Translations under genes and position numbers: made by a program
Part shown: piece after piece, positions 1,900 to 59,869 of the stretch
How the letters are laid out: every line of letters starts with the position of its first letter
Numbering within the stretch: the stretch's first letter is position 1
Notes under the pieces: model-generated
Databases searched by the model: none
The model's input: the letters and a program-made list of their open reading frames with translations, nothing else
Told to the model about the DNA's origin: nothing
NCBI GenBank assembly: GCA_016182045.1
Contig: JACOYE010000008.1
Location: 502 to 64,501 of the forward strand
DNA from: Candidatus Microgenomates bacterium
Lineage (GTDB): Bacteria; Patescibacteriota; Microgenomatia; Daviesbacterales; UBA10151
DNA length: 64,000 nucleotides
Reading direction: 5' to 3'

Positions 1900-3204
1900 T
1901 TAAAGACCCTGCATTGAGGAAGTAACTAGTTTTTTTGTCACAGTTATTCCTTCTCTTGTAACAAACACAAAGGGATAACTACTAGTATCACCTGTTTGTT
2001 GATACTTTTCCCAAGCACTCACAACAGATTCAAATACCCTGGTATCTGCATCATATTCATCAGCCGCGCTTTTCTCACCTTCGCTTTCGTAGTGGAAAGC
2101 CTCATGTCTCAAGGTAGTGCCGGCAGTAAAAGGTTCGCTGTATCTGTGGTAGGCTTTTTCCCTCCCTACATCTCTTAATTGAGGTATCCATGGATATTCC
2201 TGAAACCAACCTGGTTCAAGATAAGATTGCTGAGGATGTGGTTTGAACTCACCCCCAACCACAATATAAATAAAGACCTGATTGTGCAATTCAGGATAAT
2301 TAACAAAGAGCTCTTTGTGTCTTTGCTCAAGTTGGGGGTATTTCCCTTTATACTCTTCCTTCATTTTTTGATAGCGGTCCAAACGGGTAAAAGAACCCTG
2401 TGGTCCACCATTTTCTGCTTCATGAGCAATTGCCCTGGGTTGATCCCTAAGTATTGCTAACTCTTTGTTTCCTTCGTCAGCTAGACTTTGATTACTTGCA
2501 ATATTTTCCTCATATTCCTTTTTCAGCTCTCCGTTTTTAATCTTTCTAAGTTTCTCTTCCCAATACCTTAGGCTTTCCTCGTATTCACCTCTAAGCTGTG
2601 GAGAAGTGATTTCTTGAATCCACCTCTGATAGTCAGCAATACTCTCCTCTACCTCTTTTTGATACTCACCAGTAGTAAATTTACTCATACGCTCCTGCCA
2701 CGATTGTATGCGTTCTTGTGCCGATTTTACATCATCCTCTGCTTGCTTAATTTTAGATCGCCAATAATCTTCTGGTTCCTCTTGGGGATGAACACTGAAT
2801 GCTTGCCATACCAAACGAGCTTCCTCAGATAATTTTTCACTTGCATTCCAGCTAAGGCTTGTGTGATCGACCAAAACAATATTAACTCCCACAATTTTCC
2901 CTTCTTTTGCATCTTTAAAAAGAGGAAAATCAAAAATACCTTCTCTCAAATAAAGCTTGACCCGCGAAGTCTGATAAATACGAATACCGTTAATTCTCAG
3001 TTGTTCAGGTTCAAGCAAATCATTAAATTTTTCTCTCGGCGGAACATCTGGAACCGGCAGTTTATCTAATAAGCTTCTTATCCATCCTAAGTTCACTTCT
3101 ACCAACACAGCACCTACTCCTCCAATCGTTACTACAGTACCCTTAAGAAATGTCCTTCTTGAGAGACGATGGTGCTGAACTCCTGGTTCTGCTTCTTGAC
3201 TCAT
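1900..3204 (-). CDS. hypothetical protein with a twin-arginine-like signal (SRRTFLKG) and tandem EY..W..K coiled-coil repeats
   Basis: Long ORF with an N-terminal RR motif plus hydrophobic segment and repeated EYEESLRYWEEKL-like units. No recognisable catalytic motif. Confidence 0.5.
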   Translation of the reverse strand: MSQEAEPGVQHHRLSRRTFLKGTVVTIGGVGAVLVEVNLGWIRSLLDKLPVPDVPPREKFNDLLEPEQLRINGIRIYQTSRVKLYLREGIFDFPLFKDAKEGKIVGVNIVLVDHTSLSWNASEKLSEEARLVWQAFSVHPQEEPEDYWRSKIKQAEDDVKSAQERIQSWQERMSKFTTGEYQKEVEESIADYQRWIQEITSPQLRGEYEESLRYWEEKLRKIKNGELKKEYEENIASNQSLADEGNKELAILRDQPRAIAHEAENGGPQGSFTRLDRYQKMKEEYKGKYPQLEQRHKELFVNYPELHNQVFIYIVVGGEFKPHPQQSYLEPGWFQEYPWIPQLRDVGREKAYHRYSEPFTAGTTLRHEAFHYESEGEKSAADEYDADTRVFESVVSAWEKYQQTGDTSSYPFVFVTREGITVTKKLVTSSMQGL

Positions 3205-3284: not shown

Positions 3285-3350
3285 GTCATCGCGAGGCTAC
3301 GAAGTAGCCGTGGCGATCTAATAAGATTGCTTCGCTACGCTCGCAATGAC
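3285..3350. repeat. intergenic GC-rich palindromic element (GTCATCGCGAG...CTCGCAATGAC), a member of the repeat family also found inside CDSs
   Basis: Imperfect ~66 bp palindrome with GTCATYSCGAG termini and an internal hairpin GGCTAC-GAA-GTAGCC. It is much more GC-rich than its surroundings. Confidence 0.6.
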
Positions 3351-3388: not shown

Positions 3389-4510
3389 CTACTCTTGGGG
3401 GGTCTCTCCAACAACAGCTGTCAGTTTAAGATCTTGACCATCTCTCCAGATTTGTAGCTTCAGACTTTGACCGATATTTGCCTTTGAAATAATTTCAGCC
3501 ACTTTATTTTCCGAATCAATTGAGTTGCCGTCAATTTTAGTAATAATATCCCCTTCTAAAACCCCGTCTTTTTTTGCCGGACCATCCTCCAAAACTTCCT
3601 GGATATATGCTCCTTGCGGCACTTCATTTAAGATGGCCACATCTTTGGAGATAAACCTATATCTTATTCCCAAAAATGGTCTTGACACAGTTCCTTTGGC
3701 AACAAATTCATCAACAATTTTTTTGACAGAATTGATAGGTATGGTAAAACCAATATTTTCAGCACCCTCTGTTGTTGCCACGTTAACCCCAATCACTTGC
3801 CCTGCAGAATTTAGAAGAGGACCCCCTGAATTACCGGGATTGATGGCAGCATCGGTCTGAATCAAGTTATCCAATCTTTCAAAGGACCCTTCAAAGGGAT
3901 CCCCTGCCACTACAGCTCTACCCAGTCCGGAAACTACCCCTGTTGTGACAGTATTGGTAAAACGACCCAGGGCGTTTCCGATGGCAATTACAGTTTGTCC
4001 CACCTTTAGTGTTGAAGAGTCACCTAAACCTAAAGGTTTTAAGTTTGATCCGTCTATTTGTACTATGGCCAAATCCAACAAAGGATCTCTATAGATTCTT
4101 CTTACCTCATATTTTTGCCCATCCTTTGTCACAACGCTGTATCGTCCTTCCTCCCCTACCACATGCTTATTGGTGACAATAATTCCCTTCTCAGATACCA
4201 CAAAGCCCGTACCAATGGTTGCCTCTTCTCTGGTGGGGATGGAGAAAGGATCAAAGGGATTAACGACTCTTCTTGATACACCAATTGCCACCACAGATGG
4301 GGATGCTTTCTCGGAAGCAGAAATGACTGCATTTTCTTCCTGAATAATTGTTCTGGTTTCTTGGGGAGGAAGAGGTTGTGGAGTGAAATCACCCCTTGGT
4401 ATTAAACCTCTTACTTGAGCCTGATACAAACCAACTGCCACCAACACTCCCAAAGATATGGCTAAAACTATACCTGATAAATTTGGTCTAGGTAATTTTG
4501 AATAATCCAT
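3389..4510 (-). CDS. htrA: HtrA/DegP-family serine protease (trypsin-like domain plus PDZ)
   Basis: GNSGGPL catalytic-serine motif, a TNKHVV histidine region, a C-terminal PDZ-like domain and an N-terminal membrane anchor. Confidence 0.85.
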   Translation of the reverse strand: MDYSKLPRPNLSGIVLAISLGVLVAVGLYQAQVRGLIPRGDFTPQPLPPQETRTIIQEENAVISASEKASPSVVAIGVSRRVVNPFDPFSIPTREEATIGTGFVVSEKGIIVTNKHVVGEEGRYSVVTKDGQKYEVRRIYRDPLLDLAIVQIDGSNLKPLGLGDSSTLKVGQTVIAIGNALGRFTNTVTTGVVSGLGRAVVAGDPFEGSFERLDNLIQTDAAINPGNSGGPLLNSAGQVIGVNVATTEGAENIGFTIPINSVKKIVDEFVAKGTVSRPFLGIRYRFISKDVAILNEVPQGAYIQEVLEDGPAKKDGVLEGDIITKIDGNSIDSENKVAEIISKANIGQSLKLQIWRDGQDLKLTAVVGETPQE

Positions 4511-9610: not shown

Positions 9611-9696
9611 TTTTCTATACCCTACTTTCCATTTTCTCTTAATTTTAAATTTTTAATTTGTAATTTTTAATGAAAATTTAAAATTTTAAATTTCAA

Positions 9697-9730
9697 ACTC
9701 CGTTATCTTCTAATTAGAAGATAACGGAGT
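9697..9730 (-). terminator. perfect 15-bp hairpin (ACTCCGTTATCTTCT-AATT-AGAAGATAACGGAGT) overlapping the rpsF stop codon, followed by a T-rich stretch on the minus strand; possible attenuator between rpsF and ssb
   Basis: The inverted repeat is visible in the sequence, and downstream on the minus strand is TTGAAATTTAAAATTTTAAATTTTC. Confidence 0.4.
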
Positions 9731-12759: not shown

Positions 12760-12917
12760 TTGACAAACTTGGAGATTTGTAGTAAAAAGGCCCTGACGGT
12801 AGCCAGAATATACAATCCGACTACTCGTTTACTTAACTTCATGTAGTTGGTAACCTGACTACCGCCACTAACATGAAGGCAGTGACATTCGGGTGGCGTG
12901 GACGCGCCACCTTTTTT
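12760..12917 (+). ncRNA. candidate small RNA (~120 nt): TTGACA-17-TAAAAA promoter, then a transcript ending in an intrinsic terminator (GGTGGCG-loop-CGCCACC plus T6)
   Basis: TTGACA at 12760-12765 and the -10 box at 12783-12788. The hairpin is at 12892-12911 and T6 at 12912-12917. No plus-strand CDS exists upstream that the terminator could serve. Confidence 0.3.
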
Positions 12918-14535
12918 AAACAGTCTCACCTAACTTATGAATTCCTAAAATCTCCTTCACTTTCCTTATTATAGCTTTTGAGGAAATCTCTTCATAATCC
13001 AAAAGCTCTTGTGGTTTACCGCTTTTGGGCATTTTTTTAACTGCCAGAGAATATATCTTCCTATTTTGATTTGCTAAAGCAGACGCAACTGCCTCTCCTA
13101 TTCCTCCCTCTTGAAAATGATCTTCCACAGTTATTAGAGCTTTTGTCTCATCTTGAGCTTTCTTAAGAGTATACATATCCAGTGGTTTAACCGAATAAAG
13201 ATCAATTACTCTAATTGTTATCCCCATCTTTTTTAACTGATCAAATGCTTGTAATGCTTCATAAACTGTAATCCCAGCTGCCACCACAGTAACCTTATCT
13301 TCCTGAGATTGTTTCAAAATTTTACTTCCACCAATGGGAAATTTTTCATCATTTTTATATAAAAGAGGCATTTCTTTTCGGGTGGTTCTGATATAGACAA
13401 TTCCCTTGTGTTTGGCTGCCTCTTCCACTAATTTTTCTGTTGAGGTAGCATCCGATGGGTATAAAACTACACTTTTCAAAAGTGTCCTGAACATGGCAAT
13501 ATCCTCAAGGCCCATCTGGGATGACCCATCTTCACCAATGGATACTCCGGCATGGGAGCCGACAAATTTAATATTGACTCCGGAATACTGACTCATCCGG
13601 ATTTGATCAAAGGCCCGGGTAAAAAAGGCGGCAAAAGTGGAGACAAAAGGAATCTTGCCCATCTGGGACAAACCGATTGCCACTCCCACCATATTCTGCT
13701 CGGCAATAAACATCTCAAAAAATCTCTCAGGATATGCCTTTTTAAAAATTTCTGAATAAGTGGAATTAGAAACCTCGGCATCTAAAACTACCATGTTAGG
13801 AAACTTGGGGAATATCCTTACCAAAGCATTTCCATAAGCCTTTCTTGTCGCCACCAGATCACCTTGAGCATATTTGACAGAGTCAGTATAATTTTTTGAA
13901 CCGACTCTGTCATCCCGAGCGACTCCGACGTAAGTCGGAGGAGTCGAGGGATCTGGCTCGGCAATTTTTCCACGCAACTTCACATCCATATTTCCCAGCT
14001 CCTTTAAAGCTTTCTCCAACTCCTCAGAATTCAGTGCCTTACCATGCCATCCGTTCCGATCCTCCAAAAAAGATATTCCCTTACCTTTAATTGTTTTGGC
14101 CACAATCACAATTGGTTTATCTTTTACTTTTTGAGCTTTTTTAAAAGCATCCATAATTTCCTTAAAATTGTGACCATTTATCAAAATAGTCTCCCATCCA
14201 AAAGCAGCAATTCTTTTTGAGTAAGCTTTTATATTATGACCATACATGGTCTGGCCTCTTTGGCCTAATCTGTTAACATCCAAAATACCCACCAGATTAT
14301 CCAATTTATAGTGGGCGGCAATTTGAATTGCTTCCCAGACAGCCCCTTCTGCCATTTCACTATCACCTAACAGTACATAGGTTTTGTAACCTGATTTATC
14401 AACGTACTTGGCATTTAATGCCATCCCCATTCCAATAGAAAGACCCTGCCCCAAGGAACCGGTGGCTGCCTCCGTATATGGGAAAAGCATGGTTGGGTGA
14501 CCCTCCAACTTAGAGCCGAATTTTCTTAAAGTCAA
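12916..14535 (-). CDS. tkt: transketolase main body (TPP, Pyr and C-terminal domains); the reading frame has no ATG and continues from the N-terminal fragment in another frame
   Basis: LEGHPT...GSLGQGL...VLLGDSEMAEGAVWEA (TPP-binding) and later a ...SQMGLEDIAMFR-like Pyr domain. An in-frame repeat insert lies at 13905-13958. Confidence 0.8.
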   Translation of the reverse strand: MTLRKFGSKLEGHPTMLFPYTEAATGSLGQGLSIGMGMALNAKYVDKSGYKTYVLLGDSEMAEGAVWEAIQIAAHYKLDNLVGILDVNRLGQRGQTMYGHNIKAYSKRIAAFGWETILINGHNFKEIMDAFKKAQKVKDKPIVIVAKTIKGKGISFLEDRNGWHGKALNSEELEKALKELGNMDVKLRGKIAEPDPSTPPTYVGVARDDRVGSKNYTDSVKYAQGDLVATRKAYGNALVRIFPKFPNMVVLDAEVSNSTYSEIFKKAYPERFFEMFIAEQNMVGVAIGLSQMGKIPFVSTFAAFFTRAFDQIRMSQYSGVNIKFVGSHAGVSIGEDGSSQMGLEDIAMFRTLLKSVVLYPSDATSTEKLVEEAAKHKGIVYIRTTRKEMPLLYKNDEKFPIGGSKILKQSQEDKVTVVAAGITVYEALQAFDQLKKMGITIRVIDLYSVKPLDMYTLKKAQDETKALITVEDHFQEGGIGEAVASALANQNRKIYSLAVKKMPKSGKPQELLDYEEISSKAIIRKVKEILGIHKLGETV

Positions 14536-14758
14536 AAGCTTGCTCTCGCTGATTAGGATTTTTGGGATCTTTTAAATCAAAATGAAAAAATCCACCAAAG
14601 CAAAGAGCTACCATCAAATCAGTTGCAGATAAGGAGGAGGTGGGGTGCCCTGACCCTGCTTGGGTGGTAGATATCAGAATAAAGTAACGAATCAGTTTTG
14701 CTATTTTTTTTAAATCCCCAGCATTCATGACAACAAACTTTACCACATCATTATACAA
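14510..14758 (-). pseudogene. tkt: transketolase N-terminal fragment (82 aa) in a different frame from the main body; apparent frameshift and deletion
   Basis: AGSGHPTSSLSATDLMVAL...NPNQ matches the transketolase N-terminus and ends ...FDFKKIRL*. The expected GH(G/A) histidine segment is absent from both frames. Confidence 0.55.
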
Positions 14759-18033: not shown

Positions 18034-19083
18034 ATGCATAAACTGACTGTTTTAGTATCTTTGATATTACTGGGAATAGCTGGTTTTGTTATTTTTAATA
18101 GAGTACCACAAGTCATTCCGCCTCAGACCGAAGATAAAAAAGAAGTCCCCCGCTTTGAAGTGATAGCCAGAAATTTAGAAGTTCCCTGGGCTTTGGCATT
18201 TTTGCCTGATGGAAAGATCTTAGTAACAGAAAGAAAAGGTATTGTAAAACTAGTAGATAAAAATGGAGCAGTAACAGAGGTGGGTAAGATAAATGTCACA
18301 CAGGTTAGTGAAAGTGGATTACATGGGATAGCTATCGATCCAAAATTCTCAGAAAATCATTATATTTACTTATATTATACTTACTCAACAAATGGTGATA
18401 ACACATTTAACAGAGTTTCCAGATTTAATTTTGATAGTAGTTTAAAGAGTGAAAAGATCATTATTGATCAGATACCTGGAGCCCCTAACCATGATGGAGG
18501 TAGAATTAAGTTTGGTCTAGGTAACATGCTTTACATCACCACCGGTGATGCCCAAAATCCATCTTTGGCTCAAGACAAGGAGTCATTTGCAGGAAAAATC
18601 TTAAGAGTCACTCAGGAAGATAAAATAGAGATTTTCTCCTATGGCCATAGAAACCCGCAAGGAATTACTTGGGATGACATGGGTAATCTATGGGAAACAG
18701 AACACGGACAGACAGCAACTGATGAGATAAATCTTATCCAACCAGTACGAAATTATGGCTGGCCAATTATTAGAGGAGATCAATCTCAAAAAGATATGGC
18801 TTCCCCCTACATACATAGTGGTTCCAATACTTGGGCACCAGCTGGAGTGGCTTTTTTCAACGGCTCACTTTACTTTGGAGGATTAAGAGGCCAGGCTCTT
18901 TTTGAATATAATATTGAAAGAAAGCAGTTGAAAGAACATTTTAAAGGACAATTTGGTAGACTCAGGGAGGTTGTTTTGGGACCGGACAATATGCTTTATA
19001 TCACCACCTCAAACAGAGATGGTAGAGGTAATCCTCAACCTGAGGATGACAAAATCATCCGTATGAATCCAGAAAAACTTTAG
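18034..19083 (+). CDS. PQQ-dependent soluble sugar (glucose/sorbosone) dehydrogenase-family beta-propeller protein
   Basis: Signal/transmembrane segment, then FLPDGKILVTERKG...GLHGIAIDPKF...GHRNPQGITWD, typical of the SGDH/YliI family. Confidence 0.7.
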   Translation: MHKLTVLVSLILLGIAGFVIFNRVPQVIPPQTEDKKEVPRFEVIARNLEVPWALAFLPDGKILVTERKGIVKLVDKNGAVTEVGKINVTQVSESGLHGIAIDPKFSENHYIYLYYTYSTNGDNTFNRVSRFNFDSSLKSEKIIIDQIPGAPNHDGGRIKFGLGNMLYITTGDAQNPSLAQDKESFAGKILRVTQEDKIEIFSYGHRNPQGITWDDMGNLWETEHGQTATDEINLIQPVRNYGWPIIRGDQSQKDMASPYIHSGSNTWAPAGVAFFNGSLYFGGLRGQALFEYNIERKQLKEHFKGQFGRLREVVLGPDNMLYITTSNRDGRGNPQPEDDKIIRMNPEKL

Positions 19084-26687: not shown

Positions 26688-27772
26688 GTTAAGACTTTTT
26701 CCAGTTTACCTTTCTGGATCGCTTCTTTAATCTCCATTGCCACTCTTTTACCTATAGAAATATTTTGTCCGTACAAATATCCGCTGTAAGGGGTTGCAAA
26801 AATTCCAGGAGATCCTGGCATTCTGGGTGAAACATCAAAAACTATAATTTCTTTTTTAGGAGGTCCTGGTGTTATAACAGTTTGTAATGCAAACGGGCCA
26901 ATAACACCTGGCGGTACCAAATCTTTTGTAGCTTTTACAAATTTTTCTCCCAAAGAAAATGCATCCTCTAAAAGTGATTCCAAAACTGTCACAGCAATAT
27001 GACCTGCTTCTTCATACTTGACTCCAATTTTTTTCATCACATCTTCTCCATAATGTGCTGGCAGTTTTGTTAATCCTTCTATATTGGTCTGCCTTCTGGT
27101 ATCAGTTCCAATCAGCTCTAACCTAGAGTTAAGGGGAGAATAGAAAAAGTCAAAATTAACCTGTACACCAACAATAAACTCCTCCATAACTGCTTGGTTT
27201 ATTTGCTCTTGAGTAAATCTTCCCAACCCTAATCCTTGTTTTACACCTATTTCATATTCCTTAAAAGATTCAGCAAAGAAAAATGCTCTTTCAAATCCTC
27301 TCATCTTTTCCAAGACTTTAACAATACAAAGTCTGTCAATACTTTTTGGATCTTTAAATTGTTTTGGGTATCTAATATTTGCTTTATCTAATAAATCATA
27401 CTGATTAGGTTTTACTCCCCGTTCTTCTACTTTTAATAAAAACCTATTTCCAAACATTGGTATTTTAAATTTTTTCTCAATTGCCTCATAATCATTGATG
27501 TAAACTTCAAAAGATCTATGTGGAATAAATATGCCGTTTCTTTTTATCAACTGCTTTTGAACTTCGGGTTTTAAGATGTCTGAGAACTTTGCCAATTCTA
27601 TTACTTCATCAACACATCCCAACTCATTTTCACTTTTGTAATATTTTGCATAAGTTTTGTCTCTGCCTTTTTGCACAATTACCAAAGTTTTAAACCCCTC
27701 ATCTTTGGCCCCACGGCATACATCAAGTGCTGAATGAGAACCTAATACTGCAATGGTATAACTTTTATTCAT
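26684..27772 (-). CDS. purP: archaeal-type PurP-family ATP-grasp enzyme (FAICAR synthetase-like), paralog 1
   Basis: N-terminus IAVLGSHSALDVCRGAKDEGF and a PurP-like ATP-grasp body; 362 aa. Confidence 0.65.
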   Translation of the reverse strand: MNKSYTIAVLGSHSALDVCRGAKDEGFKTLVIVQKGRDKTYAKYYKSENELGCVDEVIELAKFSDILKPEVQKQLIKRNGIFIPHRSFEVYINDYEAIEKKFKIPMFGNRFLLKVEERGVKPNQYDLLDKANIRYPKQFKDPKSIDRLCIVKVLEKMRGFERAFFFAESFKEYEIGVKQGLGLGRFTQEQINQAVMEEFIVGVQVNFDFFYSPLNSRLELIGTDTRRQTNIEGLTKLPAHYGEDVMKKIGVKYEEAGHIAVTVLESLLEDAFSLGEKFVKATKDLVPPGVIGPFALQTVITPGPPKKEIIVFDVSPRMPGSPGIFATPYSGYLYGQNISIGKRVAMEIKEAIQKGKLEKVLT

Positions 27773-27832
27773 AATTTAAAATTTTTAATTTTTAATTTGA
27801 ATTCAAATTTTAAATTTCAAATTTGAAATTTT
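27773..27832. repeat. AT-only intercistronic element with perfect palindromes AATTTGAATTCAAATT and AAATTTCAAATTTGAAATTT; member of the AT-rich intercistronic repeat family
   Basis: Shares the TTTAAATTTTTAATTT and AAATTTTAAATTTCAAA blocks with 9641-9695, 53502-53607 and 59756-59869. Confidence 0.5.
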
Positions 27833-28849
27833 TCAATCTAAAACTTCCTTTAACTGATCTTGCTTAATAGCATTCTTAATCTCCCTTGCAATACGTCTTC
27901 CAGTACTCATTGGTTCTTTATAAAGTAAATAAGTATACGGTGAACCATTAATAAAAAAGTTTGTTCCAGCCACAATTCTTGCTGAAATTTCAATCACATA
28001 AATTTCCTCCGATGAAGTTATAATGGTCTCCAAACAAAATGGGCCAAAAAGTCCTTTTGGTGGTATCAGTCTCTTTGACACATCAATCACTCTGTCTGCC
28101 ATAGCCACAGCCTCTGCAAGCATTGATTCCCTTACAGCCATGGGGATATTGGCAACAACTTCAAAGGTTGGTTCTATACTAATTCCTCGCTGATTTTTGG
28201 CAGGAATTCGACCTAGCGAATCAACATTGGTTTCATATCTTTTATCAACACTCATAAGCTCCACTTTTTTGCTTAATGGTGAATAAAAGAAATGAAAATA
28301 AACCGGCACTCCAATTACATACTCTTGTACCATAAACCTTTCTTCGCTAAAGGTTTTGAGTTTTTCATCTAACTCTTTTTGATTTCTGGCAGTAAAATAT
28401 CCTTTTCCTCCTGCTGCCCCATATGATTTCACAATTACTGATCTATCAATTTTATCTCCTTTTCTAAACTTGTGTGGTACTTTAATACCAGATTTTTCCA
28501 TCCATTCCCTTTGCATTTTTCTATTCTCTTCCCAATCCAATACAGCCTTATTTCCAAAATAGGCAACTTGCATTTTTTTATTTTCATCCATCCCCAAATA
28601 TGCAACAAATGATCCGTGTGGAATTATTATTGAATTTCTTTTTATGAGACCTTTCTCAAGATTGGGAAAATCAGACCACTTATCAATCAATAAAATATCG
28701 TCAATAAAATTATCATAAGAAGAATAAAGTGTTTTTCTATCCGGAGTACAAACAACAGCGGTTTTAAAACCCTCATCTTTTGCGCCTTTGAGGATTTGTA
28801 AGGCGGAGTGAGATCCTAAAGTGACAATGGTTATGTTCTTAATTCCCAT
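27833..28849 (-). CDS. purP: archaeal-type PurP-family ATP-grasp enzyme, paralog 2
   Basis: N-terminus ITIVTLGSHSALQILKGAKDEGF; 338 aa; about 35% identical to paralog 1 by eye. Confidence 0.65.
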   Translation of the reverse strand: MGIKNITIVTLGSHSALQILKGAKDEGFKTAVVCTPDRKTLYSSYDNFIDDILLIDKWSDFPNLEKGLIKRNSIIIPHGSFVAYLGMDENKKMQVAYFGNKAVLDWEENRKMQREWMEKSGIKVPHKFRKGDKIDRSVIVKSYGAAGGKGYFTARNQKELDEKLKTFSEERFMVQEYVIGVPVYFHFFYSPLSKKVELMSVDKRYETNVDSLGRIPAKNQRGISIEPTFEVVANIPMAVRESMLAEAVAMADRVIDVSKRLIPPKGLFGPFCLETIITSSEEIYVIEISARIVAGTNFFINGSPYTYLLYKEPMSTGRRIAREIKNAIKQDQLKEVLD

Positions 28850-30514: not shown

Positions 30515-30537
30515 TATTTATTTTAACAGAAATATTA

Positions 30538-30579
30538 AATTATTCCCATTCCATAGTGGCTGGGGGGTTTGGTGAATTA
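30538..30579 (-). repeat. decayed copy A of the guaA 3' end (on the minus strand it would encode ...SPNPPATMEWE*)
   Basis: About 85% identical over 38 nt to the true guaA 3' end at 31864-31900. Confidence 0.6.
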
Positions 30580-30665: not shown

Positions 30666-30947
30666 TCAAGGAGATATTGCATGTTTGTGAGGTAGCAACT
30701 TCATACTTTCTCTTAATTTTCTTGCTTCCTTTGCAATTAAATCGCCCTCTTTTCCCCTCCAGATTCCAGCCCATTTTAAAGGGTTCCTTTTTTTATTTAT
30801 TTTATCTTTTTCTTCTTTAACTGAAACTAATTTAACCATAGGTTTCCCCATTTTCTCGATAACAACTGTATCTCCCTTATAGTAAACTAAATTTAATAGC
30901 TCTCCTAATCTTGTTCTTGCTTCATACGCTGAAACCGTTTTTGTCAT
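30666..30947 (-). CDS. Phd/YefM-family antitoxin (orphan; no cognate toxin ORF downstream)
   Basis: TVSAYEARTRLGELLNLVYYKGDTVVIEKMGKPMVKLVSV matches the Phd/YefM N-terminal fold. Confidence 0.6.
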   Translation of the reverse strand: MTKTVSAYEARTRLGELLNLVYYKGDTVVIEKMGKPMVKLVSVKEEKDKINKKRNPLKWAGIWRGKEGDLIAKEARKLRESMKLLPHKHAISP

Positions 30948-31014
30948 AATTAAACAAATTGTATAAATTGATTAACTTGATTAAATCATTATTACTCAGG
31001 TATGTCAAGTACTA

Positions 31015-31049
31015 CTCCCACTCCATAGTGGCCGGGGGTTTGATGGTAA
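31015..31049 (-). repeat. decayed copy B of the guaA 3' end (would encode ...ITIKPPATMEWE*)
   Basis: CTCCCACTCCATAGTGGCCGGGGGTTTGATGGTAAT aligns to the guaA terminus. It abuts the vapC stop. Confidence 0.6.
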
Positions 31050-31442
31050 TTAATAATTCTGATAGAACTTTTGTAAGTTTTCATCAAAGGTTAAAAATTC
31101 ATCAGGTTTAATTCTTTGTAACTGGGCGGCAATCACTGAATCAGTAAACTTAATATTGACCATTTTAAATATATTAACTGCTTGCTGCATATCTGGTTTA
31201 TTTTCAAGGATTATCCCATCCAGGGCCAGTAGTTCTTGAAAAAAATCTATAATATTTTCCTTTGGTTCCTTATAAAAAGATCTGAGGACCCATTCAACTT
31301 CCGGAAATACTACTTGAGGAATAAAAATCTGTATCTTTCCATTTGTGCAATCCGCAAATAGTTTCTTCACCACATTGAATCTGGGATGTCTTTTTAACTT
31401 AAAGTCCAATAATACATTTGTATCTATGGCTACAATTTTCAT
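31050..31442 (-). CDS. vapC: PIN-domain toxin (VapC family)
   Basis: MKIVAIDTNVLLD... with conserved PIN acidic residues; 4-nt overlap with the upstream antitoxin gene. Confidence 0.75.
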   Translation of the reverse strand: MKIVAIDTNVLLDFKLKRHPRFNVVKKLFADCTNGKIQIFIPQVVFPEVEWVLRSFYKEPKENIIDFFQELLALDGIILENKPDMQQAVNIFKMVNIKFTDSVIAAQLQRIKPDEFLTFDENLQKFYQNY

Positions 31443-31753
31443 TTCTTGAATTTAATACGATATAATTTGGCGTTTTTACGTTGAGTTAATTTATCATAAT
31501 CAGAAACCAGTTCTTGTGCAGCCAACCTCTCTGTTTCCTCTCTAATCTCTTTCCAGGATCTACCATCATCTAAATGAGCTAAACTGCCTGCAAATTTCAT
31601 AATATTAGATTTTCTCCTGGGTCTGCCTACAAAACTACCATCTGGTATGGGGAAAATATCAATTTTAGTTCCTTTTTTTAAACCCAGTCTTTCTCTAACG
31701 GGTTTAGGGATAGTAATTTGAGCTTTAGAAGTGAGAGTCGTAGTTAGATTCAT
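31439..31753 (-). CDS. vapB: AbrB/MazE/SpoVT-type swapped-hairpin antitoxin (VapB-like)
   Basis: SKAQITIPKPVRERLGLKKGTKIDI matches the AbrB-fold DNA-binding domain. Confidence 0.7.
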   Translation of the reverse strand: MNLTTTLTSKAQITIPKPVRERLGLKKGTKIDIFPIPDGSFVGRPRRKSNIMKFAGSLAHLDDGRSWKEIREETERLAAQELVSDYDKLTQRKNAKLYRIKFKK

Positions 31754-31843: not shown

Positions 31844-31863
31844 AATATAAAGTAGGGCTAGTT

Positions 31864-33381
31864 TTATTCCCATTCCATTGTTGCCGGGGGTTTGGTGGTG
31901 ATGTCATAAACTACCCGGGAAACTCCTGGGACTTCATTAACTATTCTGGATGAGATTTTCTGCAAAATCTCATACGGCAGTTTAGACCAGACAGTTGTCA
32001 TCACATCTTTGGACTCAATAATTCTTACTGCCATAACTTCTAAGTGGGCCCGCTCATCCCCTTTGACAGCCGTACTTTTGGTATTTGTTAAAATTGCAAA
32101 ACTCATATAAACTTTGCCATAAAGCTCGGCTTTTTTGATTTCCTCTAAAACAACTGCATCTGCCTGTTGCTGTCTTTCCAAACGCTCCTTTGTTACCTCC
32201 CCAATAATCCTGATTGCTTGACCCGGACCTGGAAAAACTTGTTTGAAGACAACTTCTTTTGGTAACCCCAATTTTTCTCCAATTAACCTAACTTCATCTT
32301 TATAAAAATCCCGCAAGGGCTCAAGAAGTTCCAAGTTCATCTCATCAGGCAATCCCCCCACATTATGATGCGATTTAATCTTATCTGCTTTTTTGGTCCC
32401 TTTACTTTCAATCACATCAGAATAAATTGTTCCCTGGGCCAAAAACTTTACCCCTTTTAACTTTTTTGCTTCTCTTTCAAATAATTCTATATAGATTTTG
32501 CCAATGGTTTTTCTTTTTTCCTCCGGATCCGTAATACCTTTGAGGGCTGAAAGAAATTCCTTCTCTGCCTCAACAATGATCGGGGTAATTTTTAAATGTT
32601 TTTGGAAAATTTGTAAAACTTCCTCTTTAGTTCCTACCCTCATCAGTCCGCTTTCAATATAAATGGGATATAAATTTTTGCCAATGGCTTTTCCAATAAG
32701 AGTTGCTGCGACAGTTGAGTCAACACCTCCAGAAACAGCACAGATAATTTTGTTATTTCCCACCCTTTCTTTGATATCTTTAATAACCTTTTTAATATCA
32801 ATCTTTTTTTTGGAAATCTTAAGTCCGCAAATATTTTGGGCAAAGTTTATCAGTATTTCGTTACCAAAAACAGTATGATCTACCTCAGGATGAAACTGGA
32901 CCCCAAAAATCTTTTTGTCTAAATTTGCTACAGCTGCTGCTTTAACATTTTCAGTACTTCCCAAATATGTAAACCCTTTAGGAATAGTTACTACGCTGTC
33001 ACCATGACTGACCCAGACAATGGAATTATTCTCCACACCTTGTAGGATAATTCCTTCATTTATGATATTAAGATTTGCCGGCCCATATTCTTTATGTCCC
33101 CCAACTACTTTCCCTCCTAAAAGATGGGCAGTCAGCTGCCAACCGTAACAAATACCAAGAATTGGAATTCCCAAACTAAAAATTTTTTTATCAATAGTAG
33201 GGGCGCCTTTTGCATAAACAGAAGCCGGCCCTCCGGAAAGAATAATCCCTTTTGGCTTAAACTTCTTAATCTCGGAAAGAGCATCTTCAGGCTGGATAAT
33301 AGTCACAGCAATGCCGTGATCCCGCAACCTTCTGCCAATCAAATGACAAGTTTGTGATCCAAAATCAACTATAATAATCAT
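31864..33381 (-). CDS. guaA: GMP synthase (glutamine-hydrolysing)
   Basis: N-terminal GATase (IIIVDFGSQ...GICYG), ATP-PPase SGGVDSTV and C-terminal ...KPPATMEWE. Confidence 0.9.
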   Translation of the reverse strand: MIIIVDFGSQTCHLIGRRLRDHGIAVTIIQPEDALSEIKKFKPKGIILSGGPASVYAKGAPTIDKKIFSLGIPILGICYGWQLTAHLLGGKVVGGHKEYGPANLNIINEGIILQGVENNSIVWVSHGDSVVTIPKGFTYLGSTENVKAAAVANLDKKIFGVQFHPEVDHTVFGNEILINFAQNICGLKISKKKIDIKKVIKDIKERVGNNKIICAVSGGVDSTVAATLIGKAIGKNLYPIYIESGLMRVGTKEEVLQIFQKHLKITPIIVEAEKEFLSALKGITDPEEKRKTIGKIYIELFEREAKKLKGVKFLAQGTIYSDVIESKGTKKADKIKSHHNVGGLPDEMNLELLEPLRDFYKDEVRLIGEKLGLPKEVVFKQVFPGPGQAIRIIGEVTKERLERQQQADAVVLEEIKKAELYGKVYMSFAILTNTKSTAVKGDERAHLEVMAVRIIESKDVMTTVWSKLPYEILQKISSRIVNEVPGVSRVVYDITTKPPATMEWE

Positions 33382-34181
33382 TTTCCCTCCTTTGCAAACT
33401 TTATCATATCTTCAAATATAAAAGCTCCATGAGGTTTAATTATTTTCTCTCTTCTCCAGTTGGGGTATTGGGTAACATCAACAAACTTTTCCGGATGTGG
33501 CATCAATCCTAATACTCTTCCAGAAGGATCAGTCACTCCAGCGATAGCATTTAAAGATCCGTTTGGATTCTCAGGATATTTTTGTGTGGGATTGCCTTGC
33601 TCATCAACATACCTAAAAGTGACCAGATTCTCATCTTCAATTTTTTTAATAATTCCGGGACTAGAGAAAAATTTACCTTCTCCATGATTTACTGAAAACC
33701 AACCCACTTGATTATTTTCTTTTAAAAATACACAGTTACTTTTATTACTCTTTATTCTTACCCATCTGCATTCAAAATGTCCACTACTATTTGCGGCCAA
33801 AGTGGCATCCATTTTGCCTAAATTTCCAAAAGGCAAAAGCCCGGTTCTTATTAAAACCTGAAATCCATTACAGATTCCGATAATTAATCCCCCTCTTTTT
33901 CTAAAATTTTCTATTTCCTCTCTTAAAAAACTTACTAGCTCAATTGCCCAAATTTTTCCGGATGCCACATCATCTCCATAAGAAAATCCTCCAGGCAAAG
34001 CCAGAATATGAAAATCTTTCAGAGTTTTGGATTTGTTCCTTAACTCATTAACATGAACAAACTGTGGACTCCCCCCAAACTTTTTAAAAGCATAAAAAAG
34101 TTCATTATCACAATTAGTCCCATCAGATTGTAGTATACAAACATTTACTTCTCGCCCTGAGCGAAGTCGAAGGGTTTTCAT
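33378..34181 (-). CDS. purQ: phosphoribosylformylglycinamidine synthase glutaminase subunit (PurQ), with an 11-aa repeat-derived N-terminal insert
   Basis: GTNCDNE...LPGGFSYGDD class-I GATase. Residues 3-13 (TLRLRSGREVN) are encoded by a copy of the GC-rich repeat. Confidence 0.85.
   Translation of the reverse strand: MKTLRLRSGREVNVCILQSDGTNCDNELFYAFKKFGGSPQFVHVNELRNKSKTLKDFHILALPGGFSYGDDVASGKIWAIELVSFLREEIENFRKRGGLIIGICNGFQVLIRTGLLPFGNLGKMDATLAANSSGHFECRWVRIKSNKSNCVFLKENNQVGWFSVNHGEGKFFSSPGIIKKIEDENLVTFRYVDEQGNPTQKYPENPNGSLNAIAGVTDPSGRVLGLMPHPEKFVDVTQYPNWRREKIIKPHGAFIFEDMIKFAKEGK
34149..34175. repeat. GC-rich repeat copy (CTCGCCCTGAGCGAAGTCGAAGGGTTT) inserted in frame after codon 2 of purQ
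   Basis: Near-identical to the inner unit at 35891-35917 in purL; GC-rich relative to its flanks. Confidence 0.6.
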
Positions 34182-34825: not shown

Positions 34826-37695
34826 GGAAATATCTCTTTCATTGGCGCTTGCCAGGCTTGTTGTAATCTGTCCATATCAACTGTAAATAATCCATCAACC
34901 ACCAACTTCTCATCCTGTGTAGTTTTTCCTAATATTTTGTAAGGCACTCCTTCAAATAATTTTTTAGCAGTTGTCTCATTTTCAACTTCCATTACAAAAC
35001 ATCCAGCTGTTTCATTAAGAAGAAAACCACCTCGAAGGTGGGCTTTCTTGTCCCGAGCGAAGTCGAGGGAGACTCCTTCGAGGTGAAGCCGAACCCCACA
35101 ATTTCCGCCAACACACATTTCAAAAATGGTTGTAATCAGGCCTCCTTCTGAAACATCATGGCATGCTAATACTTTTCCACTAACAATTGCTTTGTGCACT
35201 TTATCCAAAACCTTCGGTAAAACTTTCAAATCAACTCTGGGGATGCTACTTTCCAAATCCTGCTTACCAACCAGTACAATTGTTGACCCAGCTTTTTTAA
35301 AATCAGAAGAAACAGTTTTTTTAACATCAGGAATTTTGCCAAATACAGACATGCAAAGTGTTGGAGGACTGTGTATCACCACCCCACTAGAGCCACGATA
35401 TGTGGCAGATAAACTGTCTTTGCCAGAAATCACCGGAATCTTTAAAGTCTTCATAAAATCACAAACAGCATCTACTGATCTATCAAGCGACCACAACCAT
35501 TCTTTATCAGGAAACGGCCAAATATAGTTATTAACCAGCGATGCATCTTTGTAATTACCACCAACTGCCACATAATTAGAAATTGCCTCAGTTGCAGACC
35601 AGACACTTCCCCAATATGGATCCATCATGCTAAATTCAGGATTTAATCCATGAGAAACAACCATTCCATAGGGTTTATCCAAAAGCGGCTTAATTACTGC
35701 TGCATCATTTGGCCCATCCATTCCCACCCCTGCAAAAGGATGCAAAGCATTTGTTCCCTGAACATTATGATCATACATCCTCAAAATTGGCTCTTTTGAA
35801 TTAATATTTCCATTAGCTAAAACTTTCTCTAAAACCTTCGCCCAAACCATTTTGTCATTCCGAGCGATTAGCGAGGAATCTCTCAACTTGCCCGCCCTGA
35901 GCGAGGCCGAAGGGTTTGAGATACTCACATTCGTCAGAGATTCTTCACTTCGTTCAGAATGACGAGGAGAGATAGCTCTCATCACCCTTTGTGGCAATCC
36001 TTCAAACAAAAAACTCATTTCCAAATCTCCCACTTTTTCTTTTCCATAAAATACCTGTAATCTTTTACTGCCGTCAAACTCTGCAATCTCTGAAGCCTGG
36101 ACATTATATTTTTGACATATCTTTAAAAATTCTTTCAGATTATCTTTTGAAAGAATTATTAACATTCTTTCTTGAGATTCTGAAAGGAAAATTTCCCAAG
36201 GAGCAAGTCCTTGATATTTCAAGGGTGCCTTTTCCAAATGAACAGTCGCTCCAGTTTTTACTCCCATCTCACCAATAGCAGATGAAAATCCACCAGCTCC
36301 CAAATCTTGAACTGCCCTTATTAAATCTTTATCCCGCGCTTCTAAAATTGCATCAAATACTCTTTTTTCCTCAATTGCATTTCCAATTTGCACAGCTTGG
36401 GAGTTAACTTCCATGGTTTTTTCACTCATCTCAGCAGAGGAAAAAGTGGCTCCGTGTATTCCATCTCTTCCCGTCCTTCCTCCGATAACCACCCCTACAT
36501 CACCAATTTTTGGATAGCCTTTTTTAGCTTTACTTTTAGGTAAAATTCCATATGATCCAACCAGTACAATTGGTTTGGCTCGAAAATCCTCATGAAAATG
36601 AAATGAACCATTATTTGTAGGTATCCCCACTCTATTGCCATAATCCCTAACAGCAGCCACTACTCTTTTTAACATATAGTCAGGAGGCAATGTCCCGGCA
36701 GGTAATTTACTTTTATCTAAATCATAAGGAGCAAGACAAAAAATATCTGTTGATACCAAACTTTTTGCGCCCTGGCCTGTTGCTACCACATCTCTAAAAA
36801 CTCCACCAGATCCAGTCATTGCCCCACCATATGGTTCTATTGCAGAGGGTGCATTATGAGTTTCTGCTTTTCCATTAATTGCCCAACCTTCATAAAAATC
36901 CATCACCCCTGCATTGTCCACAAACGCTGAGACAATATTTTTGTTATGTTTCAGCGCTTCCTTTTTAATTCTTTCAAAAAGCGGTGCCTTGTTTTTCCCA
37001 TCAACTAAAAGTCTTGCTTTAAAAGTTTTATGAGCACAATGTTCACTCCAAGTTTGGGCTAGAGTCTCAAGTTCTAAATCTGTGGGATCTCTTTTTATCT
37101 TTTGAAAATAATTTTGTATCACTTTCATCTCTTCTAAATTTAAAAACAACTTATCTTTTGAAAGTTCTAATAGCTGTTCATCATTGATCCGCCTTAGGCG
37201 GATAATATTCGTTTTTGCAGGAATGTCTTTGATAAGAAGAGTCTTTTGTTTCTCCTTCACAAAATGCTCAACCATTTCATTAAGAAGATGCAATTTCCTG
37301 GCAATATCCTCTATCTCTTGATGTGTTACTTTTCCATAAAAGCCATATTCATGAGAGGAGTCAGCTGCAATAAGTTTAATTCCCAAATCCTCTGCAGTTT
37401 TAAGAATTGACCCAACTTCTGGATTCATTACACCTGGTCTGTAAGCAATCTCTATAATCTGATTTGCTCCTTTTATTATTGGAGAGTTTAAAGTATATTC
37501 CTGATAAATACCTTCACAAAAAACTGTCTCCGCTAAAACTTTTGCCTCTCTCTCGCTTACACCTTCCAATCTATAAACTTTGGCAGTCTCCACTTTTGTG
37601 ATGTTTTTGATTCCCATCTGATAAATGTCATTTAAAACTCCCTCACCAATCAGGTCTTTTCCCATAACATTTTTTACTCTGATTATATGTATCAT
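34822..37695 (-). CDS. purL: phosphoribosylformylglycinamidine synthase large subunit (PurL) with a ~185-aa N-terminal extension of PurS-like modules and two repeat-derived in-frame inserts
   Basis: Core PurL motifs (WSEHCAHKTF, GGRTGRDGIHGATFSS, AIGEMG). The N-terminal region resembles PurS twice. Inserts lie at 35854-35963 and 35049-35095. Confidence 0.85.
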   Translation of the reverse strand: MIHIIRVKNVMGKDLIGEGVLNDIYQMGIKNITKVETAKVYRLEGVSEREAKVLAETVFCEGIYQEYTLNSPIIKGANQIIEIAYRPGVMNPEVGSILKTAEDLGIKLIAADSSHEYGFYGKVTHQEIEDIARKLHLLNEMVEHFVKEKQKTLLIKDIPAKTNIIRLRRINDEQLLELSKDKLFLNLEEMKVIQNYFQKIKRDPTDLELETLAQTWSEHCAHKTFKARLLVDGKNKAPLFERIKKEALKHNKNIVSAFVDNAGVMDFYEGWAINGKAETHNAPSAIEPYGGAMTGSGGVFRDVVATGQGAKSLVSTDIFCLAPYDLDKSKLPAGTLPPDYMLKRVVAAVRDYGNRVGIPTNNGSFHFHEDFRAKPIVLVGSYGILPKSKAKKGYPKIGDVGVVIGGRTGRDGIHGATFSSAEMSEKTMEVNSQAVQIGNAIEEKRVFDAILEARDKDLIRAVQDLGAGGFSSAIGEMGVKTGATVHLEKAPLKYQGLAPWEIFLSESQERMLIILSKDNLKEFLKICQKYNVQASEIAEFDGSKRLQVFYGKEKVGDLEMSFLFEGLPQRVMRAISPRHSERSEESLTNVSISNPSASLRAGKLRDSSLIARNDKMVWAKVLEKVLANGNINSKEPILRMYDHNVQGTNALHPFAGVGMDGPNDAAVIKPLLDKPYGMVVSHGLNPEFSMMDPYWGSVWSATEAISNYVAVGGNYKDASLVNNYIWPFPDKEWLWSLDRSVDAVCDFMKTLKIPVISGKDSLSATYRGSSGVVIHSPPTLCMSVFGKIPDVKKTVSSDFKKAGSTIVLVGKQDLESSIPRVDLKVLPKVLDKVHKAIVSGKVLACHDVSEGGLITTIFEMCVGGNCGVRLHLEGVSLDFARDKKAHLRGGFLLNETAGCFVMEVENETTAKKLFEGVPYKILGKTTQDEKLVVDGLFTVDMDRLQQAWQAPMKEIFP
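35049..35095. repeat. GC-rich repeat copy in frame near the PurL C-terminus (encodes ..GVRLHLEGVSLDFARDK..)
   Basis: TCCCGAGCGAAGTCGAGGGAGACTCCTTCGAGG; its core matches the 34149-34175 element. Confidence 0.5.
35854..35963. repeat. composite (nested) GC-rich palindromic element in frame in purL, adding about 37 aa (ISPRHSERSEESLTNVSISNPSASLRAGKLRDSSLIARNDK)
   Basis: Outer termini are GTCATTCCGAGCG...CGTTCAGAATGAC. The inner unit CGCCCTGAGCGAGGCCGAAGGGTTTG matches the purQ copy. Confidence 0.65.
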
Positions 37696-53501: not shown

Positions 53502-53607
53502 AAATTTTAAATTCTAAATTTTTAATTTTTATTCAAATATAAATGTCTTAATTTTAAATTTTTAAACATTTAAAATTGATTTAAAATTTCAAATTGAAAA
53601 TTAAAAA
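53502..53607. repeat. AT-rich intercistronic repeat R1 (106 bp) between yqeY and ybeY; about 90% identical to R2 at 59756-59869
   Basis: Alignment of the two regions shows only one 11-nt indel and a few substitutions. Confidence 0.6.
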
Positions 53608-54600: not shown

Positions 54601-55692
54601 CTATCCTCCTACCATCTTCTTTAGAAGATCCAGTGTTCTGGTCTGTCTTAATGCATGCCTTAAATGTAATCTGGGTTCTTGGGCTTCAAACTGTCTTTTA
54701 ACTCTGGCATCTTGAATCTTATCTATTTCTGCTTGTAACTCCTGGTCTGTAATACTGACATTTTCCATCCTGGCAATATCTGCCAAACCCAATTCCATTC
54801 TGACATTTTTCTCAGCCTGCACCCTCCATTCACTTTTTAACTGTTCCAAAGTTTTCCCCTGACCCCTAAGATAGTCTTCCAAAAGTAACCCCATGTCAGC
54901 CACTCTTCTTTGTAAAGAAACTAACATTCTATTTAACTCATCTTGAATTAAAACCTCAGGTAATTCCACTTGAGTCATCTTTTCCACCTCTTGTAGAATA
55001 GCCTCTTCATAATCTAGCTCATTATTGTAAGATGCATTTGCCTCCAGATCTTTCCTGATCTTTGCCCTTAAATCATTTAAATCTAATGCCCCCATGGCCT
55101 TGGCAAAAACATCATCAGGAACTTGGGCCTGACCATTGGTGGGTGTTTGTTGTCCTTGCTGGAAACTTATTGATCCAGTAACTTTGTCATTCTGGGGAGC
55201 GCTAGCGACTCCAGAATCCTTTCCCACTGGCTGCCTCACCTTCCATCTTTTATAAAGATCGTCAATAACTTTTTGGACCTCCTCCTCAGTCACTGATTTT
55301 GGGGTTGGTCTGGTAACTTTAATGGCTTTATAATTTCCCACAGAAACTGCTGGTCTATTGGTGATGGTGGCCTTAAATTGAAGTTGCTGACCCTTAACAA
55401 AAGAAATTAAATCATATTTTGGATAGTCAATCGGGATAATGTCTGTGCCTTTAAGCGCCTCTATTAAAAAATTGGGGTAGGCAGCTTTTAAAACTTCATC
55501 CTGAAGCTTAATACCCAAATTTTGCTCAACCATGGGTAGGGGCGCAGCACCTTTTCTGAAACCGGGCAACTCCACATCTTGAGCCATTTTTTGAAGTGTC
55601 TGATCCCAAGTTTGCTGTAAATCTGCCCAAGGAACAGTCACAGTCACCTCAACTATAGATTTAGGAAGTTTTTGAATATTTTTAGAAATCAT
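54601..55692 (-). CDS. tig: trigger factor (short form, 363 aa)
   Basis: N-terminal ribosome-binding domain with the GFRKGAAP signature. Confidence 0.75.
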   Translation of the reverse strand: MISKNIQKLPKSIVEVTVTVPWADLQQTWDQTLQKMAQDVELPGFRKGAAPLPMVEQNLGIKLQDEVLKAAYPNFLIEALKGTDIIPIDYPKYDLISFVKGQQLQFKATITNRPAVSVGNYKAIKVTRPTPKSVTEEEVQKVIDDLYKRWKVRQPVGKDSGVASAPQNDKVTGSISFQQGQQTPTNGQAQVPDDVFAKAMGALDLNDLRAKIRKDLEANASYNNELDYEEAILQEVEKMTQVELPEVLIQDELNRMLVSLQRRVADMGLLLEDYLRGQGKTLEQLKSEWRVQAEKNVRMELGLADIARMENVSITDQELQAEIDKIQDARVKRQFEAQEPRLHLRHALRQTRTLDLLKKMVGG

Positions 55693-59755: not shown

Positions 59756-59869
59756 GAATTTTAAATTCTAAATTTTTAATTTTTATTCAAATCTGAATGA
59801 CTAAATTTTAAATTTTTAAACATTTAATCATTAAATATTGATTTAAAATTTCAAATTGAAAATTAAAAA
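59756..59869. repeat. AT-rich intercistronic repeat R2 (114 bp) between frr and rseP; near-identical to R1
   Basis: See R1. Confidence 0.6.

Follow-up and report, generated by a model that had tools for sequence, protein, structure and literature searches.

The stretch of DNA considered here, referred to as the window, comprises 64,000 nucleotides (positions 502 to 64,501) of contig JACOYE010000008.1 from a Candidatus Microgenomates bacterium (assembly GCA_016182045.1), a member of the candidate phyla radiation (CPR). The window has a GC content of 0.375, its minus strand carries most of the genes, and about 96% of it lies within long open reading frames (ORFs), a figure that is an upper bound on coding. 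Its genes include tkt, purQ, a purS-purL fusion, and the trigger factor gene (tig), and the closest relatives of its PurL protein carry Candidatus Daviesbacteria or Microgenomates annotations, at 73 to 75% identity, which suggests a Daviesbacteria-like source. Within and between these genes lies a family of short hairpin repeats with a GC content of about 0.52 to 0.65. An initial annotation, made from the sequence alone, had listed five copies sharing terminal motifs and richer in GC than the host DNA, one intergenic and four in frame within genes assigned as purL, tkt, and purQ, and had likened them to the palindromic elements of Rickettsia.

These observations were borne out in the main. The five copies sit at the coordinates originally given or a few bases off, and the gene assignments stood, as did the difference in GC content. 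The terminal motif GTCATYCCGAGCG, with up to two mismatches, was found four times in the window against 0.54 expected, and none of 100 shuffled sequences reached four; a looser core motif gave five matches compared with 0.66 in shuffles. A covariance model, trained mainly on copies from other phyla together with three arms from the window, was run unfiltered on the window and returned nine units with E values of <0.4. These fall at six loci, recovering all five reported ones and adding a sixth, in the trigger factor gene, that had been missed (Table 1). Five of the six loci are genic. Every genic copy keeps the reading frame of its host, which would add 8 to 37 extra residues; the peptides of the four genic copies first listed read as originally quoted, and the copies are read in differing frames. 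The claim that all copies fold into long hairpins held for two of them. Folding was significant only for the intergenic copy at 3285-3350 (-17.1 kcal/mol as DNA, z -3.84) and for the 110-nt copy at 35854-35963 (-22.3 kcal/mol, z -3.60), both of which are long palindromes, but not for the other three reported loci, whose units are single, truncated, or composite and whose z scores run from -1.1 to -1.7.

Table 1. Positions, settings, and covariance-model matches of the hairpin repeats in the window.
Feature	Position	Strand	Setting	Sequence or peptide	Covariance match
Intergenic inverted dimer, 66 nt, two tagged units	3285..3350	.	39 nt downstream of htrA-like ORF 3389-4510 (minus strand); 81 nt upstream of ORF 1900-3204	Arms GTCATCGCGAG...GCGATCT and partner AGATTGC...CTCGCAATGAC	3323-3350(-), 33.9 bits; 3285-3320(+), 17.4 bits
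tkt insert	13905..13958	+	Linker between PP and Pyr domains; gene on minus strand	Peptide EPDPSTPPTYVGVARDDRV	Tagged unit 13909-13953, 12.5 bits, E 0.36
27-nt untagged unit	34149..34175	+	Codons 3-11 of purQ (minus strand)	Core CCCTGAGCGAAGTCGAAGGG	16.2 bits
Outer untagged hairpin	35028..35085	.	C-terminal part of purL (minus strand)	CACCTCGAAGG...CCTTCGAGGTG; encodes HLEGV...KAHLRG	
Nested 24-nt unit	35047..35070	+	Loop of the outer hairpin	CTTGTCCCGAGCGAAGTCGAGGGA; encodes SLDFARDK	23.4 bits, E 3e-4
110-nt inverted dimer	35854..35963	.	purL inter-domain linker, aa 578-614	RHSERSEES...RDSSLIARNDK; arms GTCATTCCGAGCGATTAGCGAGGAATCTC and decayed partner GTCATTCTGAACGAAGTGAAGAATCTC	42.5 and 38.8 bits (both arms in model training set)
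Nested 24-nt module	35891..35914	+	Center of the 110-nt dimer, flanks CTTG...TTT	CCCGCCCTGAGCGAGGCCGAAGGG	12.7 bits
Tagged unit	55186..55220	+	In frame in trigger factor gene 54601-55692 (minus strand)	GTCATTCTGGGGAGCGCTAGCGACTCCAGAATCC; encodes GKDSGVASAPQNDK	17.3 bits, E 0.016

The repeating unit measures about 24 to 28 nt and has a fixed layout: an unpaired tag, (T/C)GTC, is followed by A-T, a stem, a short G-rich loop, the complement of the stem ending in A-T, and finally a C with two further bases. Two inverted units make up the 66- to 110-nt palindromes of the window. The dominant type, GTCATYCCGAGCG-NAG(Y)-CGAGGRATC, folds into 5 bp, a 2x2 G/A internal loop, 2 bp, and a loop of 3 to 4 nt that is nearly always NAG or NAGY. 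In the window the tag reads TGTC at 3285, 13909, 35854, and 55186 and CGTC at 3350(-) and 35963(-); three short units (34149-75, 35047-70, and 35891-914) do not have the full tag plus A-T start. Among 143 units from other phyla, the base before GTC was T in 106 and C in 26, giving a YGTC tag in 92%. The GTC-AT...AT-C frame is invariant in the alignments, with pair 4-42 being A-U in 99 of 101 sequences and pair 5-41 U-A in all 101, and position 6 (Y) with its partner R was T-A in 82 and C-G in 61 of the 143 units, with no mismatch. The tail of these units always starts with C, and the next two bases were TC (44 units), TG (32), CC (27), TA (15), TT (13), or CA (2). Half of them (71 of 143) have an inverted partner within 130 nt, and the resulting elements span 66 to 147 nt, with a median of 86. 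In a model-fitted alignment of 150 hits, which leans towards the model and much of which was picked by the search pattern, 99.2% of the cells pair and four of the six pairs change on both sides, with 67 cells showing such changes against 16 ± 12 in shuffles. Direct reading of the unit shows five open frames out of six, the sixth being closed by the TGA within ATGAC. The loop variant ATTAG is common to different loci of the window and of the related loci L122 and L194 and was seen in none of 112 units from other phyla, which points to amplification within the lineage.

For purL, a codon alignment of the window with three syntenic loci (L121, L122, and L123) was made. At the C-terminal site, the window and L121 (protein P0012) have the outer hairpin plus exactly 24 nt (TCCCTCGACTTCGCTCGGGACAAG) between GTC|AAA, L122 (P0013) has the outer hairpin alone (CTTCGAAGG...CCTTCGAGG) without the 24-nt unit, and L123 (P0005) is empty. 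Among PurL orthologues generally, the distribution of the outer hairpin is patchy. The copy first placed at 35049-35095 does contain a unit, but one that is really 24 nt long and nested in a different, untagged hairpin. At the inter-domain linker, L122 carries an orthologous dimer of 69 nt that has an odd CTAATCG, in one arm, in common with the window, and L121 and L123 are empty. This element has been inherited vertically with decay, opposite arms having been degraded by GC-to-AT transitions in the window and L122 lineages. The window has about 41 nt more than the L122 dimer, in the center, including the nested 24-nt module, which is absent from the 69-nt element. Nesting was observed in four cases, namely in tkt, twice in purL, and in guaA of L123, where the 24-nt module known from the purL dimer is enclosed by a GTCATCCTGAA..TTTCAGGATC unit, its CTTG^TT loop context matching that in purL. 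The guaA site of L123 is also one of those at which filled and empty states can be compared by codon. The purL genes of L194, L216, L217, and L222 also carry units, and the lengths of PurL orthologues (875 to 1023 aa) differ at a few spots where the differences cluster. The orthologues form a star, with a p-distance of about 0.20 for nearly all pairs of close relatives, and the history of gain and loss could not be rooted.

A second clean comparison is given by purQ. In the window the protein begins MK-TLRLRSGRE-VNVCIL, and in the syntenic loci L123, L190, L121, and L122 the start (MKK, MKI, MK, or MRS) is followed directly by the VNVCIL-type sequence; at the same site L194 has a different, decayed unit in place of the 27 nt of the window. 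Given the filled and empty sites at the DNA level among orthologues, these segments look like insertions and not like ancestral ones, as the initial annotation had argued. The finding that it named as a refutation, identical segments at identical positions in unrelated lineages, was not what the alignments showed; different repeat units were found at the same tolerant spots instead. A gene for a HAD-family hydrolase (34178-34825) stands between purL and purQ in the window. In L190 a HAD-like C terminus precedes purQ, and in L121, L122, and L123 purQ comes directly after purL.

The tkt copy contains a tagged unit, GTCATCCCGAGCG...AGTCGAGGGATC, that is split by a perfect 18-nt hairpin, CTCCGAC-GTAA-GTCGGAG (13923-13940). 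It sits in a hypervariable linker in which the orthologues P0122 and P0123 have a related, shorter RDPS..QDDKV other orthologues have unrelated sequence, and two have other repeat-like peptides; the net gain in length is 7 aa. P0121, which comes from another assembly, a Logan run, is 100% identical across the insert. The window tkt is itself broken (14536-14740). Compared with P0121 (628 aa and otherwise 100% identical), 74 nt are missing at junction 14552/14551, namely, NDRLIFSKGHASPLFYSLYAAAGA plus 2 nt, which shifts the frame, and an ORF restarts at TTG 14535; strain variation, a pseudogene, or an error of assembly may each account for this deletion. For the tig unit there is no clean empty site because the segment of the Tig alignment is hypervariable. 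The trigger factor is short (363 aa), with two separate stretches matching homologues of about 430 aa, and it is apparently without the central peptidyl-prolyl isomerase domain, the unit at 55186-55220 being placed where that domain would be. Across the orthologue alignments of PurL, Tkt, and Tig, the inserts are located in hypervariable linkers or termini. In an AlphaFold model of PurL built with 25 sequences, residues 579-613 and 874-887 are coil with a predicted local distance difference test (pLDDT) score of <50, and when PurL was aligned to solved structures the inserts fell in poorly aligned stretches that gave no precise loop assignment. Candidate peptides spanning the junctions of inserts are ...GVSLDFARDKKAH... 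and MKTLRLRSGREVN....

The unit is not peculiar to this genome, and further copies were found in the sixth window locus, in related loci, and well beyond. A search for the exact pattern that took one genome from each species (596 Gb) identified at least 120 genome loci with the unit, against an estimated 2 to 5 by chance, in at least 13 phyla. Bearers include Acidobacteriota, Chloroflexota, Verrucomicrobiota, Planctomycetota, Gemmatimonadota, Bacteroidota, Firmicutes, several proteobacterial classes, Nitrospirota, Armatimonadota, and Dormibacterota, as well as a genome of the CPR group Uhrbacteria and a metagenome-assembled genome (MAG) of a nanoarchaeote (Nanoarchaeota). Complete isolate genomes of Hymenobacter and Dysgonomonas (both Bacteroidota) are among them. 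The 25-nt unit is nearly unchanged among these distant phyla, and the covariance model gave 204 hits in 726 kb of loci from them. Sixty-five viral contigs in IMG/VR also carry the unit. At least 10 related phage contigs form one clade with the GTCATYCCGAGCG unit (L129, L131, L140, L141, L143, and related IMG/VR loci); here it lies up to about 1.5 kb from, and in some contigs inside, terminase-like and approximately 900-aa portal-like ORFs, and the portal-like ORF of L131 reads through it as ...EIPRFARNDG.... In the other phyla, mostly with GC-rich genomes, units are almost always outside recognizable genes, with 24 of 146 in long open frames, and when 10 units were compared with Pfam, only a Prevotella glycosidase gene of family GH2 clearly had one inside a domain. 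That gene (L073 4466-6973) has an in-frame unit near residue 659, in the DUF4982 region, which means that genic insertion happens outside the CPR too. A Dehalococcoidia chromosome (L006 6247-7141) has seven units in 900 nt, arranged as a tandem array of about 330 nt in alternating orientation.

When ORFs within 400 to 1500 nt of units were clustered for about 185 loci, a limited sample, no recurrent transposase-like neighbor was found. Of 120 loci in other phyla, 3 have an ORF with a GIY-YIG nuclease motif beside or overlapping a unit, too few for an association: the unit abuts or overlaps a small ORF of this kind at L011 4704-5127 (131 aa) and L066 853-1180 (108 aa), and at L019 2426-3980 some 280 nt separate the unit from a 415-aa ORF that has the motif. 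When PLSDB plasmids and INPHARED phages were searched by BLAST with a canonical dimer, nothing matched at an E value of ≤1e-3.

Among known systems, the closest is the CGTC-tagged superfamily of repetitive extragenic palindromic (REP) sequences (Di Nocera, De Gregorio, and Rocco 2013, BMC Genomics 14:522, PMC3733652). According to that paper, its units have an unpaired CGTC tag, often TGTC, with TGTC and CCTC as variants, an uninterrupted stem of 8 to 9 bp starting with A, T, a loop of 4 to 5 nt, and a 3-nt tail, CCA. They occur mostly as inverted dimers folding into a larger hairpin, are found inside genes in several species and within other palindromes, and have no associated transposase; four families were described, and five phyla were reported in 2013 (PMC3733652). 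CGTC-1 is the dRS3 repeat of Neisseria, and in R. conorii CGTC-1 corresponds to the Rickettsia palindromic element (RPE) RPE-6 and CGTC-4 to RPE-4 (PMC3733652). The units described here resemble the superfamily in the tag, the A-T start of the stem, inverted dimers, in-frame genic units, nesting, and the lack of a neighboring mobilizer. The tail gives a mixed picture: present and starting with C, it reads CTC, CTG, or CCC in place of CCA. The units differ in that the stem of the dominant unit is interrupted and its loop is 3 to 4 nt, in that some copies are untagged, and in host range, which takes in at least 13 phyla, a CPR member and a Nanoarchaeota MAG among them, compared with the five of 2013. 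Because of the interrupted stem and short loop, the window unit is best taken as a variant of the CGTC kind, set apart from the four families as the source describes them. Canonical members with an 8-bp stem, a 4- to 5-nt loop, and a 3-nt tail (GTCATTCCCGCGAAAGCGGGAATCCA; GTCATCCTGAACTTGTTTCAGGATC) do occur in the related CPR-like loci L191, L192, L249, and L264; the window has none. Since the superfamily includes RPE-4 and RPE-6, the likeness to Rickettsia elements noted at the outset probably reflects kinship, a stronger connection than the one first claimed, and one that we draw from the equation of these RPEs with CGTC families in PMC3733652.

RPE-1 measures about 100 to 150 bp and is AT-rich like its host. 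By its description, it differs from the present repeats, which are units of 24 to 28 nt or dimers of 66 to 110 nt, are far richer in GC than their host, are nested, and recur across phyla. What the RPE-1 type has in common with them is that palindromic repeats are inserted in frame in numerous housekeeping genes, unrelated to each other, of a small genome and add peptide segments (Ogata et al. 2000, as summarized in PMC10969869 and PMC3733652). The same arrangement is seen in tkt, purQ, purL (twice), and tig of the window, with empty orthologue sites for purL and purQ, and in purL and guaA of related loci. Another comparison is with REPs and REPINs, which are mobilized by RAYT (TnpA-REP) tyrosine transposases (Bertels and Rainey 2011, PMC3116915). 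The REPIN, an inverted doublet of short tagged hairpins, is the replicative unit; it leaves the target unduplicated, and units that stand alone have the look of remnants (PMC3116915). Inverted doublets, an unpaired tag, the absence of target duplication, and single units are likewise features of our repeats, but the tag is YGTC and not GTAG, and REPINs are extragenic, compared with five of six genic loci here. No RAYT flanked by units and no cluster of Y1-transposase-like neighbors was seen in the sample of about 185 loci, and with the YGTC tag this led us to reject identity with GTAG/RAYT REPINs. Nostoc and further cyanobacteria carry small dispersed repeats (SDR), which Elhai and colleagues are said to have described in 2008 (Genome Res 18:1484, cited in PMC3116915). 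These are reportedly hairpin units of 21 to 27 nt with no known mobilizer that have inserted within each other as well as within conserved sequences. As far as descriptions can be compared, these are similar small nested hairpins in a different host phylum. In keeping with the view of the initial annotation that nothing of the sort was described for this kind of genome, the literature searched held no palindromic in-frame elements for the CPR, no REPs for Patescibacteria, and none of the motif strings. What appears to be new is the Daviesbacteria-like CPR host, the interrupted-stem unit, the nested copies, the genic location of five of six loci, and the recurrence across phyla and in viruses.

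We consider it likely, with a probability of roughly 0.75, that the copies in the window are non-autonomous hairpin repeats of the (C/T)GTC-tagged REP kind that were inserted into genes and are read through. We infer that copies would be made by a trans-acting enzyme, encoded elsewhere, that recognizes the folded single strand, and that new copies would land without duplicating the target, frequently within the loop of a hairpin already present, giving rise to nested composites. In a gene-dense genome (about 95% coding) most landings would be genic, and the five of six loci found in genes are what random landing in such a genome would give. Selection would presumably act as a filter, the survivors being copies that keep the frame, avoid the closed frame, and sit in linkers, loops, or termini. 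Surviving copies would be read through, and presumably translated, as the extra residues and would be inherited vertically, decaying by GC-to-AT transitions.

Several findings weigh against this explanation. No transposition event, excision product, or mobilizing enzyme was identified, and the window holds few copies (6 loci in 64 kb), several of them old and decayed, which makes present-day mobility uncertain. The presence and absence of inserts in PurL orthologues are incongruent with sequence distance, and losses, parallel gains, or recombination have to be invoked. A lone unit of type A folds weakly (-2.7 kcal/mol, z -0.4, with nearest-neighbor DNA parameters). In the comparisons of purQ, tkt, and L123 guaA, some inserts seem to replace 3 to 30 nt of native sequence, which simple insertion does not predict. 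The PurL model is poor overall, with a mean pLDDT of 63 and 344 residues, about one third of the protein, below 50, and so lends weak support to surface-loop placement. A further puzzle is that the unit keeps a GC-rich sequence in a 37% GC genome.

An improbable alternative, which follows proposals made for classical REPs, is that the hairpins are kept for a role as RNA or DNA, stabilizing mRNA, pausing transcription or translation at domain boundaries, or binding a host protein, with the peptides as a by-product. The unit is nearly identical in genomes of 35% to 70% GC and its stem positions covary, and such conservation would suit a function of this kind, but it is equally expected if a mobilizing enzyme requires it. 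The genic copies at domain boundaries and linkers (the tkt PP-Pyr boundary and the purL inter-domain linker) and the intergenic copy just downstream of a gene would fit as well. However, the closest orthologues function without the inserts, the arms decay freely by transitions in either lineage, and the host genes are unrelated. Moreover, comparison with Rfam gave no match, whether for the window at the gathering score, for 18 loci of other phyla, or near the purL dimer at an E value of ≤10.

Still less probable, in our estimate, is that the repeats are ordinary MITEs (transposable elements of the miniature inverted-repeat type), deletion derivatives of insertion sequences with terminal inverted repeats that are moved by a DDE transposase. 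The dimers do resemble 27-nt terminal inverted repeats around a variable center of 10 to 60 nt, 66 to 147 nt in total. However, the two clean filled and empty pairs, in purL and purQ, have no target-site duplication, single units of 24 to 28 nt occur and insert alone, each arm forms its own hairpin and leaves the tag unpaired, and neither a full-length parent nor a transposase stands beside any of the approximately 185 loci. We give very little credence to the idea that the segments are lineage-specific protein linkers, ancestral coding sequence that is GC-rich and self-complementary by chance. It draws on the fact that several lie in hypervariable, ambiguously aligned linkers with a small net gain (as in Tkt) or an unclear one (in Tig), but it is already contradicted by the recurrence of the same 20- to 28-nt sequence across genes that are unrelated, intergenic DNA, and other phyla, by the exact presence or absence of 24 and 27 nt, and by the different reading frames of the copies, and the motif and covariance searches exclude chance-level DNA similarity. 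A metagenome assembly artefact, in which repeats common to many organisms able to co-occur in one sample were spliced into contigs, is the least credible reading of all, as inserts keep frames, recur in independent assemblies (the P0121 tkt insert and the orthologous purL inserts of P0012 and P0013), and are built of a unit present in the complete isolate genomes of Hymenobacter and Dysgonomonas.

If the repeats are CGTC-type insertions, they join three separate subjects: selfish DNA in coding sequence of the Rickettsia style, orphan CGTC REPs, and the small genomes of the CPR. Where a genome has next to no intergenic space, repeats of this sort would end up in genes and lengthen the linkers and loops of core enzymes, and their insertion would help to account for length variation among orthologues of CPR proteins such as PurL. 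For annotators and structure predictors, the strings SLDFARDK, LRLRSG, RHSERSEES, and ARNDK in MAG proteins may be taken as signs of repeat-derived sequence. The near-identical 25-nt unit in distant phyla and phage contigs also offers a handle on the mobilizing enzyme. A broader proposal, which we regard as speculative and on balance doubtful, is that the 25-nt GTCATYCCGAGCG-NAG(Y)-CGAGGRATC hairpin is a prokaryote-wide mobile module, copied by a broadly distributed enzyme that recognizes tagged single-stranded hairpins and inserts into the loops of other hairpins. If true, it would provide a steady supply of new surface peptides to core enzymes in gene-dense CPR genomes. The unit being so widespread and so invariant, a comparison of where it occurs with the gene content of genomes could then reveal the mobilizer of CGTC repeats and RPEs.

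Other GC-rich or GTCAT-hairpin places in the window were inspected as well. The one at 12875-12915 was rejected as a copy because it is a plain GC hairpin with a T-run. Those at 19024-19050, 60788-60839, and 62873-62902 were rejected, by eye, as apparent native coding sequence of a sugar-dehydrogenase-like, an EF-Ts-like, and a DHFR-like ORF, respectively. Separately, the 3' end of guaA (...KPPATMEWE*) is present three times in the window, at 61 to 78% identity (30528-30578, 31000-31050, and 31852-31902). The repeats bracket two small cassettes (31439-31753 with 31050-31442, and 30666-30947) that look, by eye, like toxin-antitoxin pairs, and the pattern resembles serial site-specific integration into the guaA end. 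AT-only intergenic repeats of about 70 nt (AATTTTAAATTTTTAATTT...) occur at 9631-9711, 27762-27843, 53492-53611, and 59757-59873; some copies match each other at 86 to 94% identity, and palindromes occur among them (families D1/D2 and inverted repeats I1-I6). Ribosomal protein L31 (626-952) is 108 aa long, and the family profiles, of about 70 aa, end near residue 70, leaving a C-terminal extension of about 38 aa.

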